From: Amoebophrya sp. A120
Lineage: Eukaryota > Protista > Dinoflagellata
Assembly (NCBI GenBank): GCA_905178155.1
Contig: CAJINV010000110.1
Coordinates: 1 to 6,402, forward strand
Direction: 5' to 3'
DNA length: 6,402 bases
Shown: one piece after another, positions 1 through 6,402 of the stretch
Layout of the letters: the number at the start of each line of letters is the position of its first letter
Position numbering within the stretch: position 1 is the stretch's first letter
Position numbers and translations under genes: made by a program
The notes under the pieces: generated by a model
The model's database searches: none
Seen by the model: only the letters and a program-made list of their open reading frames with translations
What the model was told of the DNA's origin: nothing

Positions 1-1022
1 GGTTTTGGAAAGCATTTCCAACGCCCGGAACACCGCCACCTGGTTATCAGATGCAAAAGTGTCTGGGTCTGGAACAAAGCAACTTGTCATGCTAAATCTG
101 AATCATGTAAAAATCTGTGTTGCATCATTACCAAAAGCCGTCCACTTTTGACCTAATCGGGAGGCAGTTTCTCATGCGGGGTAGGCATGATAGAACTCGC
201 ACAGAATCTGTCATGCTATGTCCTACATACCAGACCCCATGGGTCATGGAAACCCTGCATGACAAGTCTGGCATTCTTCCAGACCCAAACATTTTTACAT
301 TTGATACTGGTCGATCGCGGATAAATGCACATAGCCGGAAATTTCCCGGTCCAAGTACGTGAACAGCCGTATCCTATGTAAAAACATCCCCACACCAATG
401 TCAAGATGGAAAATGTGCTAGACAAATCAACCAGCTTTGGTTGTTTCGCATGACAAATTTGGCCCCGTAGTGTGATCCTGTTTAGTTAGCTCCAGCAGCA
501 TAACAGGTCTAGCAGGTCATGCTGATTTGAGCATCACAAAATCCAAAACACGACGGGGAAATGCTTCGCATGGGGCTTCACATGAGAAACATTTTTGCCC
601 TGCAGATTTGCATGACAACTTTGGGGTGGGGATGTTTTTACTCAGAATATGCCGTCGTGGATTGCCGTCGTACCGGATCTCCCGGCAGAGCTCCCGCCAC
701 TGCTCGAAATCCAGGTTCACGCCGGAATACTGGTATGCAATACAAATTTAGCGTAGGTAGTTGCACGACGAAGCAGATGCACAAAGTGCATGACAAATTC
801 CGGCACCAGCATTAGAGCTGAAAGTTGTCATGGTAAATGGGCTGGGGAAACAGAAGATCTGTCATCGTCATGCAATAAGGTCATCATGATCATCTGCATC
901 TGTGTGTACTACGGTAAGAAGAACTTTGCTCTAGATAACTGCAAGATAATCTGCATAAACGCCTGCTTCGTCGATCCGTAGCGGACGTGAAGTCGCTCGA
1001 TGAACAGTTTCAAGTGGTTTTT
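1..1022 (-). CDS. Partial multi-exon gene, EF-hand-like repeat protein. Exons approx. 1022-942, 732-654, 368-311, 43-1; 5' part not found, 3' part runs off the window
   Basis: Removing three TIR elements plus one TSD each (209, 285 and 267 nt) gives 87 stop-free codons: KNHLKLFIERLHVRYGSTKQAFMQIILQYSGVNLDFEQWRELCREIRYDGNPRRLFTYLDREISGYVHLSAIDQVAVFRALEMLSKT. LFTYLDREISGYVHLSAID resembles a degenerate EF-hand loop. Exact junctions can slide within the TSDs. The product call is by motif resemblance only. Confidence 0.75.
45..306. mobile_element. Introner/MITE-like element E1 (262 bp), intron of the EF-hand-like gene
   Basis: Perfect TSD ctggt at 40-44 and 307-311. Left arm tatcagatgcaaaagtgtctgggtctggaacaaagcaacttgtcatgc; reverse complement of right arm tatcaaatgtaaaaatgtttgggtctggaagaatgccagacttgtcatgc. 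Confidence 0.9.
370..649. mobile_element. Introner/MITE-like element E2 (280 bp), intron of the EF-hand-like gene
   Basis: TSD agccg (365-369) / tgccg (650-654), 4 of 5 identical. Left arm tatcctatgtaaaaacatccccacaccaa; reverse complement of right arm tattctgagtaaaaacatccccaccccaa. Confidence 0.88.
734..937. mobile_element. Degenerate introner/MITE-like element E3 (204 bp), intron of the EF-hand-like gene
   Basis: TSD actgg (729-733) / actgc (938-942), 4 of 5 identical. TAT at both termini and an eroded IR (tatgcaatacaaattt...gcagatg vs tatctagagcaaagtt...gcagatg). Internal gcatgacaaat and ttgtcatg motifs. Removing 209 nt (not a multiple of 3) joins two open frames. Confidence 0.75.
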
Positions 1023-1023
1023 C

Positions 1024-1079
1024 TATCCTGTGCAAAAGTATCGCAGTCGTAGTAATTGCAAACATGCATTACAAATCTT
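1024..1079. mobile_element. Orphan terminal arm E4 of the tgcaaaagtatcg element family
   Basis: tatcctgtgcaaaagtatcg is identical over 20 bp to the reverse complement of the E5 right end. About 55 bp align with the E9 left arm. No partner arm or second ttttc TSD was found by eye. Confidence 0.8.
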
Positions 1080-2824
1080 GTTCGGGTTCCCGGATGATGT
1101 CGGACCCGTTATTCGCAGCAACACCGGCGCTGCCCCCAAAGCCCGAGGAAAGAACTCTCCATTCGTCACTTTCAGTTTCATCACATCCAATCTCCCATTT
1201 GCAGCCCGGTCCCCCGACTACAGCGCGAGCAAAGAGACCCGCTCTCTGCTGGTTCAAACAAAAAAACAAGAAGAATCTCATACTATTCTACAGATGAATT
1301 TGGAAACACATCAAACGAAATAAAGAAAAAGAAAATTATTATACAGGAAGAAGTACTGAAACTCAAGAAAGATGAACAAGCAGAGGTCTCGTCTCCCGTC
1401 ACTATCAATAAACCTATATCGTGAATACCAGCCTGCTCTATGATACGAGAATGTGCAAATGGTTGTTCATAAACGGCTTTCTTGGTCGGATCGAAATTTC
1501 GAGTCTGGGTACTAGTTCACTTCTATCTTTACATTTGCAGACTGGGATGATCGTGGAGATCCGACAGAGATTTTGTTGGCTGTAATATCGTCGGATCTGT
1601 GGCATTTAGCACGAAAAGACTTTCCTGGTGCAGATCTCTCTCCAGCATCAACTTCTGCTTCGTGTCGAAACAAGATTGAGACCGTTCTTGTCGGATCGCG
1701 GTCATTCTCTACTTTTCATTCACATTCTAGTAGGGAAAGGTATACAGATTTATGCTCTTAAACGAAGAGCGCCATGCGGTTGCGGCCAACAACAAAGTAC
1801 AAACTACACGATGTGATCGAACAAAGCTGCCAAATGAATTTGCCACGAGCTGGACAAGTTTCAACACGGCACCGTGTCCTGCACTACACTGGAAATTTAG
1901 TTTTTTCGCACGACTCACCTTTGAGTTTTCCGCGTATTTCACACATATAAAACATCCAACAAGGTTGGACATTTCGGGTGGTGGAGGTGATGTAAAGTAA
2001 GTATTATACATAGTCCTACCTCCTTCCTCTAGTGCTGTGTTTGCTGAGTGCGTGCTTTATTTTGTTTGTGAAAGTTTTTGATGAAACGCCGATCACCAGC
2101 AAGTATTCATTGGGTGAATAGCAGGCGCTCGTCCTCCAGATCGAGTAATTCTTTGTAGCTGTATTTCCCTGGAATTGACGTGGTACTTTGTACTACATTG
2201 CTTTTCAACATCGTGTACTACTTGGCAGCTCTGGTTGCATTCTCACATTAATAGAATACTGGCTCTTGATGTTCACTTCTTTAACAGTACAATGGCCTTA
2301 TCTTATTTTCTGCCGAAGCAGAAAAATCTTCATGCGACATTTTTGATTCATCTTTCCGTATCCGTTGACCACCACATGCAGCACATACGATGAAGGTCTT
2401 GTTTTTTAGTACCATACTTTGTAAAAAAGTACGACAAAAACTACTAGTTGTGTGCATTGTGTTCATTTTCGAGGTTAATGCTGTGGCGTGTCTTATGTTG
2501 ATGTTCTGTGGTTGTAGTAGTGTTTCCGTTCTTCTTTTATTCCGTGTTAGATATGGTCATGCTGACATAAAAATGACAATGACCCTCTACTGTTCCGTCT
2601 GTAATTAGCAGTGAACGACGTCCCAATTTATTCCGTGACGACGAGCAGGGAGGCATACAAACGGAAAAATCTCGAAAAATCTTCTTATATATCTACTTTC
2701 CCGCGTTGATGTTCATGTTCCATTTCGACTCCCGAAGTTTAAAGCATCAATCTGTCCTCCCCCTCTTCTTCTCATACCAGATTGACCAAGAAAAGACCCA
2801 ATTTACATTTAGCACTGAAGAAAT

Positions 2825-3784
2825 TTAGTGCTTCTTGCGCTGGGCGGCAATCTATGAACTGCAAAAGTATCGCACACGTATAAATGCATTACAAATTTTC
2901 TCAGCATGAGAAATAAAATTTGTAATGCTGATTTGCCTTGAGCTTGACAAAGAAATTTGTAATGCAAGACCAGCATTTATACGAGTACGATACTTTTGCA
3001 CAGGATACAATCGCCTCGGTCATCTCCTCACGCTTCTTCTTACCGCGCTTGTGCGTGCCCAACCTATAAAAGTGCACAACTCCCCCTCCCCCACATTTGT
3101 ATTGCATGAACAGCAACACAAGCAACAGCAGAAAAGGGGCCTTCGCATGACAAATCTACATGCGGATTGTAGTACTATTTGAGGTTCCAAAATTTGTCAT
3201 GCTAACAATGCTTACGTGTGAGTTTGGTATTTTGCATTACAAATGAGGGGGAGGGGGAGTTGTGCACAGTCATACAACCGCTTCTTGGCGTACTTCAACG
3301 CACGCTTCAGGGAGTATTAAATGCAAATATGTCTGGGTCTGGAGGGATGCAAGGTTTGTCATGCACATTTTGCATATCTCCTGATGTCTGTGATGCCTAC
3401 CCTAGCATCACATATTTTTCGAGGACTTCCTGATGCCTGTACCGCATGAGAAATGCCCTCGCACCGTGGCAAAAACTGGACCTCTTTTTCTGTTTATGCA
3501 ATACAGATTTTTGTAGAATCCAAATGCAGCATCACAAGTTGCATCCTTCCAGACCTACTAGACATATTTGCAATGCATAGGGAGGAGGCGGACCCCATCT
3601 TGATGAGCTCCATGACACGACGTTCATAGGGCGCGAAGCCCGCGGTCTCGCGGACCACCTCGCGAACGAGGGCGACTTTGGAGGAGAGCTTGCCCTTCAT
3701 ATTGGAGGGCTTTTGCTTCAGGGTGCGCACCGTGGTGACGTGACCACGTTCGCGGCCAGCGGCAATTCCGGAGCGGGGCGACAT
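2825..3784 (-). CDS. RPL36: 60S ribosomal protein L36 (eL36), 4 exons approx. 3784-3584, 3313-3279, 3063-3012, 2851-2825; 104 aa
   Basis: Spliced translation MSPRSGIAAGRERGHVTTVRTLKQKPSNMKGKLSSKVALVREVVRETAGFAPYERRVMELIKMGSASSLKRALKYAKKRLGTHKRGKKKREEMTEAIAAQRKKH*. It carries the eL36 motifs VREVxGFAPYERR and KRALKxAKKRLGTHKRGKxKREE and has normal length. ATG at 3784-3782, TAA at 2827-2825. Confidence 0.97.
2853..3007. mobile_element. Introner/MITE-like element E5 (155 bp), RPL36 intron 3
   Basis: Perfect TSD caatc at 2848-2852 and 3008-3012. Left arm tatgaactgcaaaagtatcgcacacgtataaatgc; reverse complement of right arm tatcctgtgcaaaagtatcgtactcgtataaatgc. Confidence 0.93.
3065..3274. mobile_element. 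Introner/MITE-like element E6 (210 bp), RPL36 intron 2 (GT-AG intron 3278-3064, 215 nt)
   Basis: Perfect TSD caacc at 3060-3064 and 3275-3279. Left arm tataaaagtgcacaactccccctcccccacatttgtattgca; reverse complement of right arm tatgactgtgcacaactccccctccccctcatttgtaatgca. Confidence 0.93.
3315..3579. mobile_element. Introner/MITE-like element E7 (265 bp), RPL36 intron 1 (non-canonical)
   Basis: Perfect TSD gggag at 3310-3314 and 3580-3584. Left arm tattaaatgcaaatatgtctgggtctggagggatgcaa; reverse complement of right arm tatgcattgcaaatatgtctagtaggtctggaaggatgcaa. Same IR family as E1. Confidence 0.93.
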
Positions 3785-5710
3785 GGCTTTGCGGTTTTGA
3801 TGTTTGGAGGTAAGTAGCAAGAAGAGGACAAAATGAAGAATAGATTTGCTCACGGTAAACTTGCAGGAGAGAACGCAAACGATTTCTCTATGCAAACTGA
3901 TAAATCTGGTTGAGCAGAAGCTCGGCCTGGAGGAAAAAAATCAAGGTGACATCGATAAATTTCATCAATTCGCAAGAAATTTTATGAGCCTTCTTCCATG
4001 CAAGACTACTTATTTCGCCACACGGATTGGATTTGGAACACGTCGTCGAAGCCACCGGATCGAAGATTTTTCTGCCTTTACAAACACAAACAGGGTCCTC
4101 ACGGATCTCGATTTTTCTCTTTTTTTCGGTCAACATTTCAACCATCGAAAGCACCAATGGATTTTCTTTCTGTGTTGCAGCTTCTGCTTCCTACTCATTC
4201 AATCATCATCGTGTTCATGAGGATCTTTATTTTCTGTGGAGAGTTGTATCAATTTAAATTTTCGAATTTTTCTAGGCGTGATTTTGATACTTCTACTCAC
4301 CAAGATGTAGTTCCACCGACGAGGACCTCACCTGGCGATGAGAATGATGTTGTGGGCTCTTTACTGAGTGATGGAAGAACAGGTGGAGCTTTTTGTTCCT
4401 TTCGAATTATGGGAATGGCGATGGCATAATTCTCTTGGATATCGCAGTCGTCCTCGAGCACCAGCGCCACAAGCCGGAGAATAATCGATCTGAAACTTCT
4501 TTCGATTTCCTTACCGCAACAAGGACATCGTGGTCTTTTATACAAATGCAAAAATCTGGTGGCGCTGAAGATCATCGATCGATCCTCATAGTCATGGGCG
4601 GCCAACTTTGGAGAAATATTTAGCAAATCGAGTTCATCAACAAGGTAGTTGCAGAGGCGCTTCAGGTGCCGAGTCCACCACGCAAGATGAAATAGTACAA
4701 CGCGTGGAGGCGCCGCAGCAGCGCAACCCAGAGTCTTTCTTCGGTCTGAAGACCCTCCTATTGCAAATTCTACTAGGAAGCTCAAGTCAAACGAAATAAT
4801 AATGGTTTTCGTTGTGTCTAGCAATATCAATCAAGTCAAAGCAAAGCTTATCTCCTTAAGCTAAAACGTTTTCGATTCATCATCAAAAGGTAGCGGTCGA
4901 GAAAGGTACTACGGCTATTCTGAAATTCTGTACTCTGGGTTTCGTCATTTGTTGCGTTTTTGTTCTACTCCGGACGTGCTGGTGTCATCGGTCATTGATA
5001 AAGTTTAGGTACACTGCAAAGTGCATAGAAGATATTTGAAGGAGCAGTGTAACTGTAATACTTCGCATTCATTTTCACTTTCTCAGCATTGCATTACTGT
5101 GTTGATTCGGTTTTGAAATTTGGTTTTAGTAGGGGTAAATAAGCAAACAAGTAAACAGAAGCTCAACTAGGCGCACGTCTCTTTGTGCGTCGAAAATAAA
5201 CGTCTTTCAAGCAGCGCCGCGCGCCGGCTAATAGAATTCCTGGTGACCACGCTTGCGCCGCTTGAGACGAGTTGGTGTATTATACAGGACATTATCAGCG
5301 ATGCATTCAAACAACAAGATTGGCACCTTCTTGACGAGGCCCTTTAATTTTCTGCATTATTGAAACAAGAGCGAAAAGAACTTCCGAAGGATGATGGATG
5401 GCGTGACGCTACGAGGGCGGTTGTTCTACTGGAGTGGTCGTAAACGTAGTCAGCACACTAAATATCAATTACTCCTCCTCCCCGAAGACGGCCTGAAACT
5501 CCTTAACAACTGAAACCCTGTCACGATCATCACCTGCTACTAGGAAAGTAAAAGTTAAAGTATAGTAGATTATTAGTAGATGATTGATTCGCGAATTACA
5601 CGACTAGTACTGTCCGGGTTCTTGCACCGGCAGTACCTACTGGGATTTAAAACAGACGCCACATCATTCAACACGGCTCGCCGGTTTGAAAATCCCCTTT
5701 GACCGGTTCT

Positions 5711-6286
5711 TTAATCCATTAGATCCCCTCCGCCCAAACCCTTCAACAAGTCTCCGTCTCCGCCACTCCCAGACCTCGCTTTTATCGGAGGCGGCCGCGG
5801 TTGCAGCCGGTCTAACTTCGTCCCGCCGGCGGCCGCCCCGCCGCCGCCCGCCGCGCCGCCCCCACCTAGTTGCCCCTGGATCCAGGAGAAGACGGGAATC
5901 GCGTCGGCCTTCTTCTGGACCTTGGCTTTCATACGGTCGCTACTCCGCTATGCATTGCAAAAGTGTCGCGCGTTGTACTAGTAAAAATAGCATCACAAAT
6001 TTTGGCAAGAACAAAAGTGGAAGTTGTAATGCTGTTTCAGGTTTGGAAAGAGATTTGTCATGCATGAGTGCAATTTCAACGAGTCGTGCGATACTTTTGT
6101 AATGCATATCCGCTCCACATGGACCATTTCGTAGAGCATCTGCGTCGCCCGGTTCCACTCGTTATCTAGCACATGGTGCCGCGGGTTCCAGTGCGACCGC
6201 AAGTCGTCCGTTAGTTTTACCCCCTCAAACGCCGGCCCGCGCTGGAAGGTGTTGCTGTGGGCGATGCGAACTTCGTCGAGCGAGCT
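5711..6286 (-). CDS. Last two exons (approx. 6286-6113 and 5947-5711) of a hypothetical protein with a Gly/Ala-rich C-terminus
   Basis: GC-rich, coding-like sequence. Removing E8 plus one TSD (165 nt, containing an in-frame stop) gives SSLDEVRIAHSNTFQRGPAFEGVKLTDDLRSHWNPRHHVLDNEWNRATQMLYEMVHVERSSDRMKAKVQKKADAIPVFSWIQGQLGGGGAAGGGGAAAGG...GGDLMD*. No family recognised. Confidence 0.75.
5823..5863. repeat. GC-rich (CCG)-like low-complexity tract encoding GGGAAGGGGAAAGG on the minus strand
   Basis: ccgccggcggccgccccgccgccgcccgccgcgccgccccc read directly from the sequence. Confidence 0.7.
5949..6108. mobile_element. Introner/MITE-like element E8 (160 bp), intron of the hypothetical gene
   Basis: Perfect TSD tccgc at 5944-5948 and 6109-6113. 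Left arm tatgcattgcaaaagtgtcgc; reverse complement of right arm tatgcattacaaaagtatcgc. Confidence 0.9.
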
Positions 6287-6287
6287 G

Positions 6288-6402
6288 TATGAACTGCAAA
6301 AGTATCGTACTCGTAGTAATGGCAGTCATGCATTACAAATCTTTTTCTTAAGGTAGATCCGCATTACAAATTTCATTTCTCATGCTGCGAAAATTTGTAA
6401 TG
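6288..6402. mobile_element. Introner/MITE-like element E9, partial (runs off the window)
   Basis: Begins tatgaactgcaaaagtatcg, identical over 20 bp to the E5 left end. Contains gcattacaaat twice and atttgtaatg. Predicted TSD agctg (6283-6287). Confidence 0.85.

Follow-up and report, generated by a model that had tools for sequence, protein, structure and literature searches.

How are introns without fixed end dinucleotides removed when a single organism has tens of thousands of them? This question is raised by a 6,402-nucleotide (nt) stretch of the dinoflagellate Amoebophrya sp. A120 (contig CAJINV010000110.1), here called the window, which we analysed from its sequence together with published data. 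It holds seven complete elements (E1 to E7) and two partial ones (P1 and P2), all in coding sequence (CDS) read from the minus strand. The existence of such a class is not surprising; 29,850 repeated introns with a TAT start and 3-5-nt repeats have been reported for A120 (Farhat 2021, PMC7789003). By a narrow preference, we explain the elements as non-coding transposon insertions that are removed from the precursor messenger RNA (pre-mRNA) at a position set by a hairpin, most likely by a spliceosome that apparently lacks U1. In this proposal, DNA transposons with inverted TAT...ATA ends would have inserted with a 5-bp target duplication and, as non-autonomous terminal inverted repeat (TIR) elements, would have been moved by one transposase system binding their ends and an internal motif. 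Their removal from the pre-mRNA would be exact and positioned by the terminal hairpin instead of GT/AG, with the host's apparently U1-less spliceosome as the catalyst.

The complete elements are non-coding and 155-280 bp long: E1 at 45-306 (repeats 40-44 and 307-311), E2 at 370-649 (365-369 and 650-654), E3 at 734-937 (729-733 and 938-942), E4 at 2853-3007 (span with repeats 2848-3012), E5 at 3065-3274 (3060-3279), E6 at 3315-3579 (3310-3584) and E7 at 5949-6108 (5944-6113). The half-element P1 occupies 1024 to about 1083, with one repeat copy at 1019-1023, and P2 runs from 6288, with a repeat copy at 6283-6287, until it is cut by the window end (6402). An earlier interpretation made from the letters alone (the sequence-only reading) had described seven complete and two partial elements, and its coordinates, lengths and restored frames were borne out, the frames matching real proteins. 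It counted P1 in its numbering, so that its E6 is our E5. The ends of the partial elements do match, but P1 is broken internally at about 1083 and not by the window border. Likewise, 5-bp target site duplications (TSDs) had been assigned to all complete elements; five are perfect (E1 and E4-E7), while the repeats of E2 and E3 agree at only four of five positions. Scanning for TAT...ATA flanked by perfect 5-bp repeat copies at 100-400 nt gave seven matches, of which five (E1 and E4-E7) also have a strong inverted repeat. In 200 dinucleotide shuffles, the mean was 0.38 matches, and 0.01 (maximum 1) with a strong inverted repeat. The same window scanned for 6-bp repeats yielded one unrelated internal match only.

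Read inward, the ends resemble TAT-N4-TGC-AAA, with TAT at all 16 ends and A at positions 11, 12 and 13 in 14, 16 and 14 of them, respectively. The single terminal grammar claimed previously was thus found at 16/16 ends, and TAT-N7-AAA with 5-bp direct repeats had already been given by Farhat 2021 (PMC7789003). Comparing the left with the right end in each of the seven complete elements gives 21/21 identical bases at positions 1-3, 12/28 at positions 4-7 and 88/105 at positions 8-22. This pattern can be likened to the layout of outer tip, spacer and inner binding site familiar from insertion-sequence ends. Inverted repeats had been proposed for all elements and are present in most; that of E3 has decayed (z-score −1.45), although E3 retains TAT-N7-AAA at both ends. 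The elements are short and non-coding, with inverted ends, a target duplication and an empty-site comparison at the level of the protein of strain A25, as is characteristic of a non-autonomous TIR transposon resembling a miniature inverted-repeat transposable element (MITE). Several variants of the four-base spacer (positions 4-7) are common to more than one family and are swapped between otherwise similar ends (P1, P2, E4, E6 and E7), which suggests recombination or conversion among ends.

E1 and E6, which are oppositely oriented, form one family (69% identity over 259 nt). A second family comprises E4, E7, P1 and P2; in it, P2 lies opposite to E4 and E7 (E4 and P2 share 82% over 114 nt). Since related elements occur in both orientations within minus-strand CDS, an element can act as an intron with either of its strands, and the same end variants were found at donor and acceptor sides. 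This grouping, examined within the window, corresponds to the repeated families of the A120 introners.

The window elements belong to this published class without any difference in kind, and in this sense they are already known. The A120 introners described by Farhat 2021 (PMC7789003) come from the same organism and have an inverted repeat of TAT, seven looser positions and As, boundary repeats of 3-5 nt (5 bp in the example), a length of about 240 nt, non-canonical ends and a hairpin. The assignment as transposon-derived, mostly non-GT-AG Amoebophrya introns, proposed by the sequence-only reading, is therefore supported. A shared internal motif, independence of orientation and a fixed rule of exact removal are not mentioned in the accessible part of that paper, where the ends are treated as broadly variable splicing motifs and general mobilisation by a transposase is argued against. 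In four other sources (PMC10045372, PMC12005148, PMC11282704, PMC11453091), as far as their accessible text goes, the ends are highly variable, the mechanism is open and other Amoebophrya strains are canonical. Our literature search returned nothing on the internal motif, on both orientations, on a cut register inside the repeat or on sliding as an explanation.

The first question to be answered is whether removal is exact. Deletion of each element with one repeat copy (267, 285, 209, 160, 215, 270 and 165 nt for E1-E7, three of the seven lengths not being divisible by 3) leaves exons without stop or frameshift, although two of the repeats have diverged. Three of the elements, E4-E6, interrupt the complete RPL36 (eL36) gene (2825..3784, minus strand, four exons, 104 amino acids (aa), Pfam PF01158), and their exact removal with one repeat each gives a product identical to the annotated 104-aa A120 record. 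The protein search suggested by the sequence-only reading also returned this identical A120 protein; over the first RPL36 exon, identity is 100% to this protein and 81% to the A25 counterpart (22 matches among 23 candidates). The A120 gene models were built from transcript alignments permitting non-canonical ends, with BLAT in the pipeline, according to the accessible text of Farhat 2021 (PMC7789003), so that the agreement with the RPL36 record is indirect evidence of exact removal from the mRNA. We consider it highly probable that the elements are removed at the RNA level and exactly.

The same mRNA would result if the elements were excised precisely from the DNA before transcription, in the manner of the internal eliminated sequences of ciliates, with one pointer repeat kept. 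The orientation independence and the double-stranded end grammar fit recognition in DNA, yet transposition alone accounts for this grammar, and we know of no division into germline and somatic nuclei in Amoebophrya. The long-read assembly keeps the elements, moreover, and element-free DNA is not mentioned in the accessible part of Farhat 2021. DNA-level excision is very unlikely.

Another doubt concerns the locus itself and not the class. The window contains two genes, not three as the sequence-only reading had it: RPL36 and one large EF-hand gene in two permuted pieces. After the removal of E1-E3, the left piece (1..1023, minus strand) forms a single gap-free block with residues 1214-1300 of a 2,108-aa A25 protein (70/87 identical). 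It is 5'-truncated at P1 and continues past the window start. The C-terminal exons (5711..6287, minus strand) correspond to residues 1981-2088 of the same protein, stop codon included, with 63 identities in 105 aligned residues and no gap at the E7 junction. The A25 protein, on which EF-hand family matches are present, was the best of four matches of one exon of the left gene in a profile-free search; the other three were dropped as weak, one of them being a bacterial-looking repeat protein. Along the window, the order is thus C-terminus, RPL36, middle. Between 1100 and 2850, neither a partner end for P1 nor an upstream exon was found, and the similarity of P1 to its relatives stops at about 1083. 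The simplest reading of the junction inside P1 would be a tandem-duplication junction or an assembly join.

The locus might accordingly be a dead duplicate or an assembly junction, the annotated RPL36 transcript coming from the other copy. This caveat, raised as possible pseudogenes in the sequence-only reading, stays partly alive: an identical RPL36 protein is annotated at two places in A120, the two parts of the EF-hand gene are out of order, and the one at 1-1023 begins in a broken element without upstream exons. RPL36 is nevertheless complete here and identical to the annotation, and the exons are free of stops and frameshifts. A tandem duplication would also have given both copies identical elements, and in the published account tens of thousands of introns of this class have read support. 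A dead locus is consequently improbable.

Given exact removal, the position of the cut can be asked. A perfect 5-bp repeat leaves six equivalent cut registers, and only one of the seven complete elements (E5) has GT-AG in any of them, as the sequence-only reading had noted under its own numbering. GC-AG and AT-AC were absent from the protein-restoring registers, and an end rule of the U2 or U12 type does not apply. E4 and E6 lack any exact canonical register; the in-frame GT-AG option in E4, which would add 3 nt, is not used by the annotated RPL36. The mismatched repeats of E2 and E3 are informative about the cut. A cut flush with the 3' ATA would give Phe at E3 and one flush with the 5' TAT would give Gln at E2, whereas both sites are Leu in registers −4 to −1. 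Because A25 has Leu at both, the cut lies within the repeat if all elements share one register; under this condition it is probably 1-4 nt outside TAT. In register −4 all nine introns end with T-A-N (AG in four, AC in four and AA in one), and in register −1 all start with N-T-A-T. The two registers used together would add a codon, which is excluded by the RPL36 record. Our preference, a tentative one, is the register in which the intron ends with U-A-N, a mimic of YAG with an invariant A at −2.

If removal is exact and blind to the target, the published variety of ends should follow from the insertion sites. In the accessible part of their Table S4, Farhat 2021 (PMC7789003) listed GT-AC, CT-AG, AT-AG, GT-CG, GT-AA, CT-AC, AT-AT, AT-AC and TT-AG at 2-3% each. 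We simulated random 5-bp targets around TAT...ATA ends, removed the elements exactly and slid the boundary to whichever register came closest to GT-AG (or CT-AC). With uniform composition, all nine pairs fell within the top 14 non-GT-AG pairs. From the first 22 of the 58 A120 rows of Gozashti 2025 (PMC12130899), the seven families with 96 or more members were pooled (n=1,994), with observed frequencies of GT.268, GC.050, GA.052, AT.178, AG.290 and AC.176 against simulated ones of.292,.059,.044,.189,.295 and.154, respectively. Nine more families of at least 32 members (rows 23-41, n=7,836) resembled them. Three families have all 16 dinucleotides listed for each end (rows 56-58), and for these, fits by a single rule reached r 0.96-0.98. 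A two-weight mixture fitted to the 32 values of family 2 (n=9,716) gave r=0.991, whereas fixed registers gave only r 0.61-0.65 alone and 0.90 mixed for the same spectra. In the listed values of family 2, GT (0.269) and AG (0.269) show no excess over the simulated ranges (0.24-0.31 and 0.25-0.30). Fixed registers, a random register, +3-nt splicing and CAC termini all fitted the published spectra poorly.

The +3-nt model assumes near-canonical splicing from N-T (5') to A-N (3') that leaves one codon per insertion. An NT...AN pair is available in every element (GT-AG in E4 and E5), and the 13 Table S4 pairs correlate slightly better with this model (0.67-0.70) than with exact removal (0.55-0.61). 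It predicts, however, zero GC, GA and GT-CG, which were observed at about 5%, 5% and 2%; it received a weight of 0 in the full-spectrum mixture for family 2, and the annotated RPL36 contains no added residues. Such splicing hardly comes into question. Returning to exact removal, the annotated end dinucleotides likely carry no information about the cut, GT and AG not exceeding their frequency in random targets, and the published end variety is likely random target sequence seen through the sliding of the aligner, that is, a by-product of alignment. The claim of the sequence-only reading that removal does not depend on standard dinucleotides is supported in this way, although indirectly, by the registers, the restoration of the proteins and the simulated spectra. 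The published diversity is reduced to one likely rule, and the mechanism becomes testable from existing data. The spectra of families 26, 65, 71 and 99 (Gozashti 2025, PMC12130899) are unlike the rest: as listed, their 5' ends are nearly all GT or AT and their 3' ends are never AG or AC. They may be either a second type of intron-forming element in A120 or the result of reversed annotation.

How the elements were mobilised is suggested by an internal motif, GCAT(G/T/C)A(C/G)AAAT. Its 30 copies (85..6385, both strands, 1-5 per element) all lie inside the elements, which make up 27% of the window. The expected number was 2.1 and the maximum in 200 shuffles was 8; as the pattern was picked after inspecting element k-mers, the shuffle figure is optimistic, yet the motif spans all three sequence groups. 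In 34 outside loci, comprising 19 metagenome loci from an RPL36 scan (32-56% identical, none close) and 15 viral ones from an end-pattern scan, we found 0-3 motif copies and 0-1 loose element-like matches, which we read as chance. Most ends have a copy at a distance of 33-55 nt; in one family it is directed inward, in the others outward. A role as an RNA branch point is disfavoured, the strict motif being antisense-only in E2 and E3 and the nearest copies being oppositely directed between families; as judged from its placement, the motif would better suit a binding site in double-stranded DNA. It is rather likely that one transposase system, likely integrase-like, mobilises families unrelated in sequence through this motif.

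A candidate autonomous partner is A120 family 38 of Gozashti 2025 (PMC12130899), compared here by its published description only. It is listed as intron-generating, with '5-bp TSD, TA/TA Termini' and terminal inverted repeats, and it differs from the window elements in its length of about 808 bp and in open reading frames (ORFs) resembling Copia/Gypsy integrase regions. The integrase-like ORFs, the 5-bp duplication and the TA/TA termini make it a candidate. The IS3EU/GingerRoot elements (PMC10045372) share the TA..TA termini, and their integrase-related transposase would suit a duplication of the 5-bp type. In the available description they usually have 6-bp duplications and do not figure as introns, and the window contains no transposase. 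Membership in this group was rejected because of the 5-bp instead of the 6-bp duplication.

The remaining question concerns the catalyst. According to the accessible part of Farhat 2021 (PMC7789003), more than 60% of A120 introns are non-canonical with read support, and the spliceosome is near-complete, with U2, U4, U5 and U6 found and U1 and the minor small nuclear RNAs not detected. The spliceosome is in our opinion somewhat favoured as the catalyst, slightly ahead of a non-spliceosomal route as in euglenids. In that alternative, a structure-guided nuclease and a ligase would remove the elements exactly at the RNA level by recognising the stem, in which positions 4-7 are loosely paired. Both element orientations would be tolerated, the GT and AG frequencies in family 2 are not above those of random targets, and the sense strands of E2 and E3 lack the branch-like motif. 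Sense-strand folds are strong in E4, E6 and E7 (z −8.18, −6.33 and −3.49); stems were also seen in the folds of E1, E2 and E5, as obtained without a shuffle control. The precedent is the nonconventional introns of euglenids (PMC12501133, PMC11282704), for which such removal is suspected and which, in the accessible reports, are genome-wide and non-GT-AG, with an end-joining stem, junction repeats and a likely MITE origin. Their signature N3CDG...CHG N5-6|R is absent from the window elements and their lineage is unrelated; release as circles is reported there, by machinery that is unknown. Against a nuclease and ligase, a near-complete spliceosome with undetected U1 hints at an altered spliceosome, a single register yields an invariant U-A at −3/−2, and the stem of E3 has decayed. 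Furthermore, the transposon-derived AG-A(N) introns of Fritillaria are described as spliceosomal in the published accounts. In Fritillaria borealis and Micromonas, MITE-derived introns are likewise inverted-repeat elements that carry target duplications and are removed from transcripts; in Fritillaria their 3' ends are A(N). The end dinucleotides of these two systems are, as described, fixed, being either AG-AC/AT or canonical sites to which the target contributes a part, in contrast to the window elements, where no fixed pair is found in any exact register. Removal by a nuclease and ligase is possible but less probable than splicing.

Several points weigh against our overall explanation. No result obtained here separates a spliceosome from a nuclease and ligase as the catalyst, and the route by which euglenid hairpin introns leave as circles is unknown in the accessible reports. 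No branch signal was found in the elements: E2 and E3 carry the strict motif on the antisense strand only. The E3 hairpin is not significant, and TAT/ATA are paired in five of the seven predicted folds (unpaired in E3 and E4). The sequence-only reading had proposed that TAT/ATA guide removal; such a role is at most putative, since the transposon end needs the grammar anyway, the pairing is incomplete across the elements and the mismatched repeats suggest a cut 1-4 nt outside TAT. The register argument presupposes a single register and consists of two codons, Leu/Gln and Leu/Phe (70 against 69 identities). The sliding rule of the simulation is modelled on the way in which BLAT places introns. 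Random termini alone reach r 0.88-0.94 and TGT termini 0.92-0.96; when single rules are run, the fit with 4- or 6-bp repeats is almost as good, although the mixture favours 5 over 4. The fit uses the published spectra of families 1, 2 and 18 without their sequences, and families 26, 65, 71 and 99 deviate from it. Finally, Farhat 2021 (PMC7789003) found no transposase in A120, according to the accessible part of the paper.

There is about an even chance that most non-canonical A120 introns belong to one system, with a single integrase-like transposase family that recognises the TAT ends and the internal motif and spreads elements with 5-bp duplications through exons in both orientations, and with a dinucleotide-blind RNA removal of each element and one repeat copy at a fixed register within the repeat. 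If so, the 'splice-motif diversity' would be an alignment artefact, and the true register could be read in RNA sequencing data at mismatched repeats. An intron that is scarless and independent of orientation and target sequence would explain its tolerance even in a ribosomal protein gene.

Some further observations were made in the window. Each of the nine elements borders on coding exons. These exons account for about 984 of the approximately 4,700 non-element bases, and the intergenic stretches of 1.7 kb and 1.9 kb contain neither an element nor the internal motif. The P1 remnant ends with TAG directly before an in-frame exon and, judged by this context, could serve as an acceptor, e.g. for leader trans-splicing; a small hairpin-like sequence lies at 1083-1107, directly beside the break. 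Rfam gave no matches at E<=1 and ESM Atlas no usable match, and Pfam on 12 window frames gave none at E<0.1, the best being a single weak hit at E 0.14. Single exons used as queries in two word-indexed protein searches returned nothing, in one case likely because the A25 protein (2,108 aa) exceeds the 2,000-aa ceiling of that search. A stop-to-stop frame of 177 aa at 4297-4830 (minus strand) contains a CPCC word and has no Pfam match; its GC content at third codon positions is 0.45, compared with 0.73-0.81 in the real exons. It is probably not a host-type exon and possibly a decayed mobile element. Another frame, at 5171-5443 (plus strand), is protein-like with one interrupting stop at about 5345. 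Perfect GTAAGT donor-like words occur at 1997 and 3810 on the plus strand, opposite to the genes, and an inverted repeat of 23 nt (78%) at 1234-1256 and 1373-1395 lacks TAT/ATA ends.

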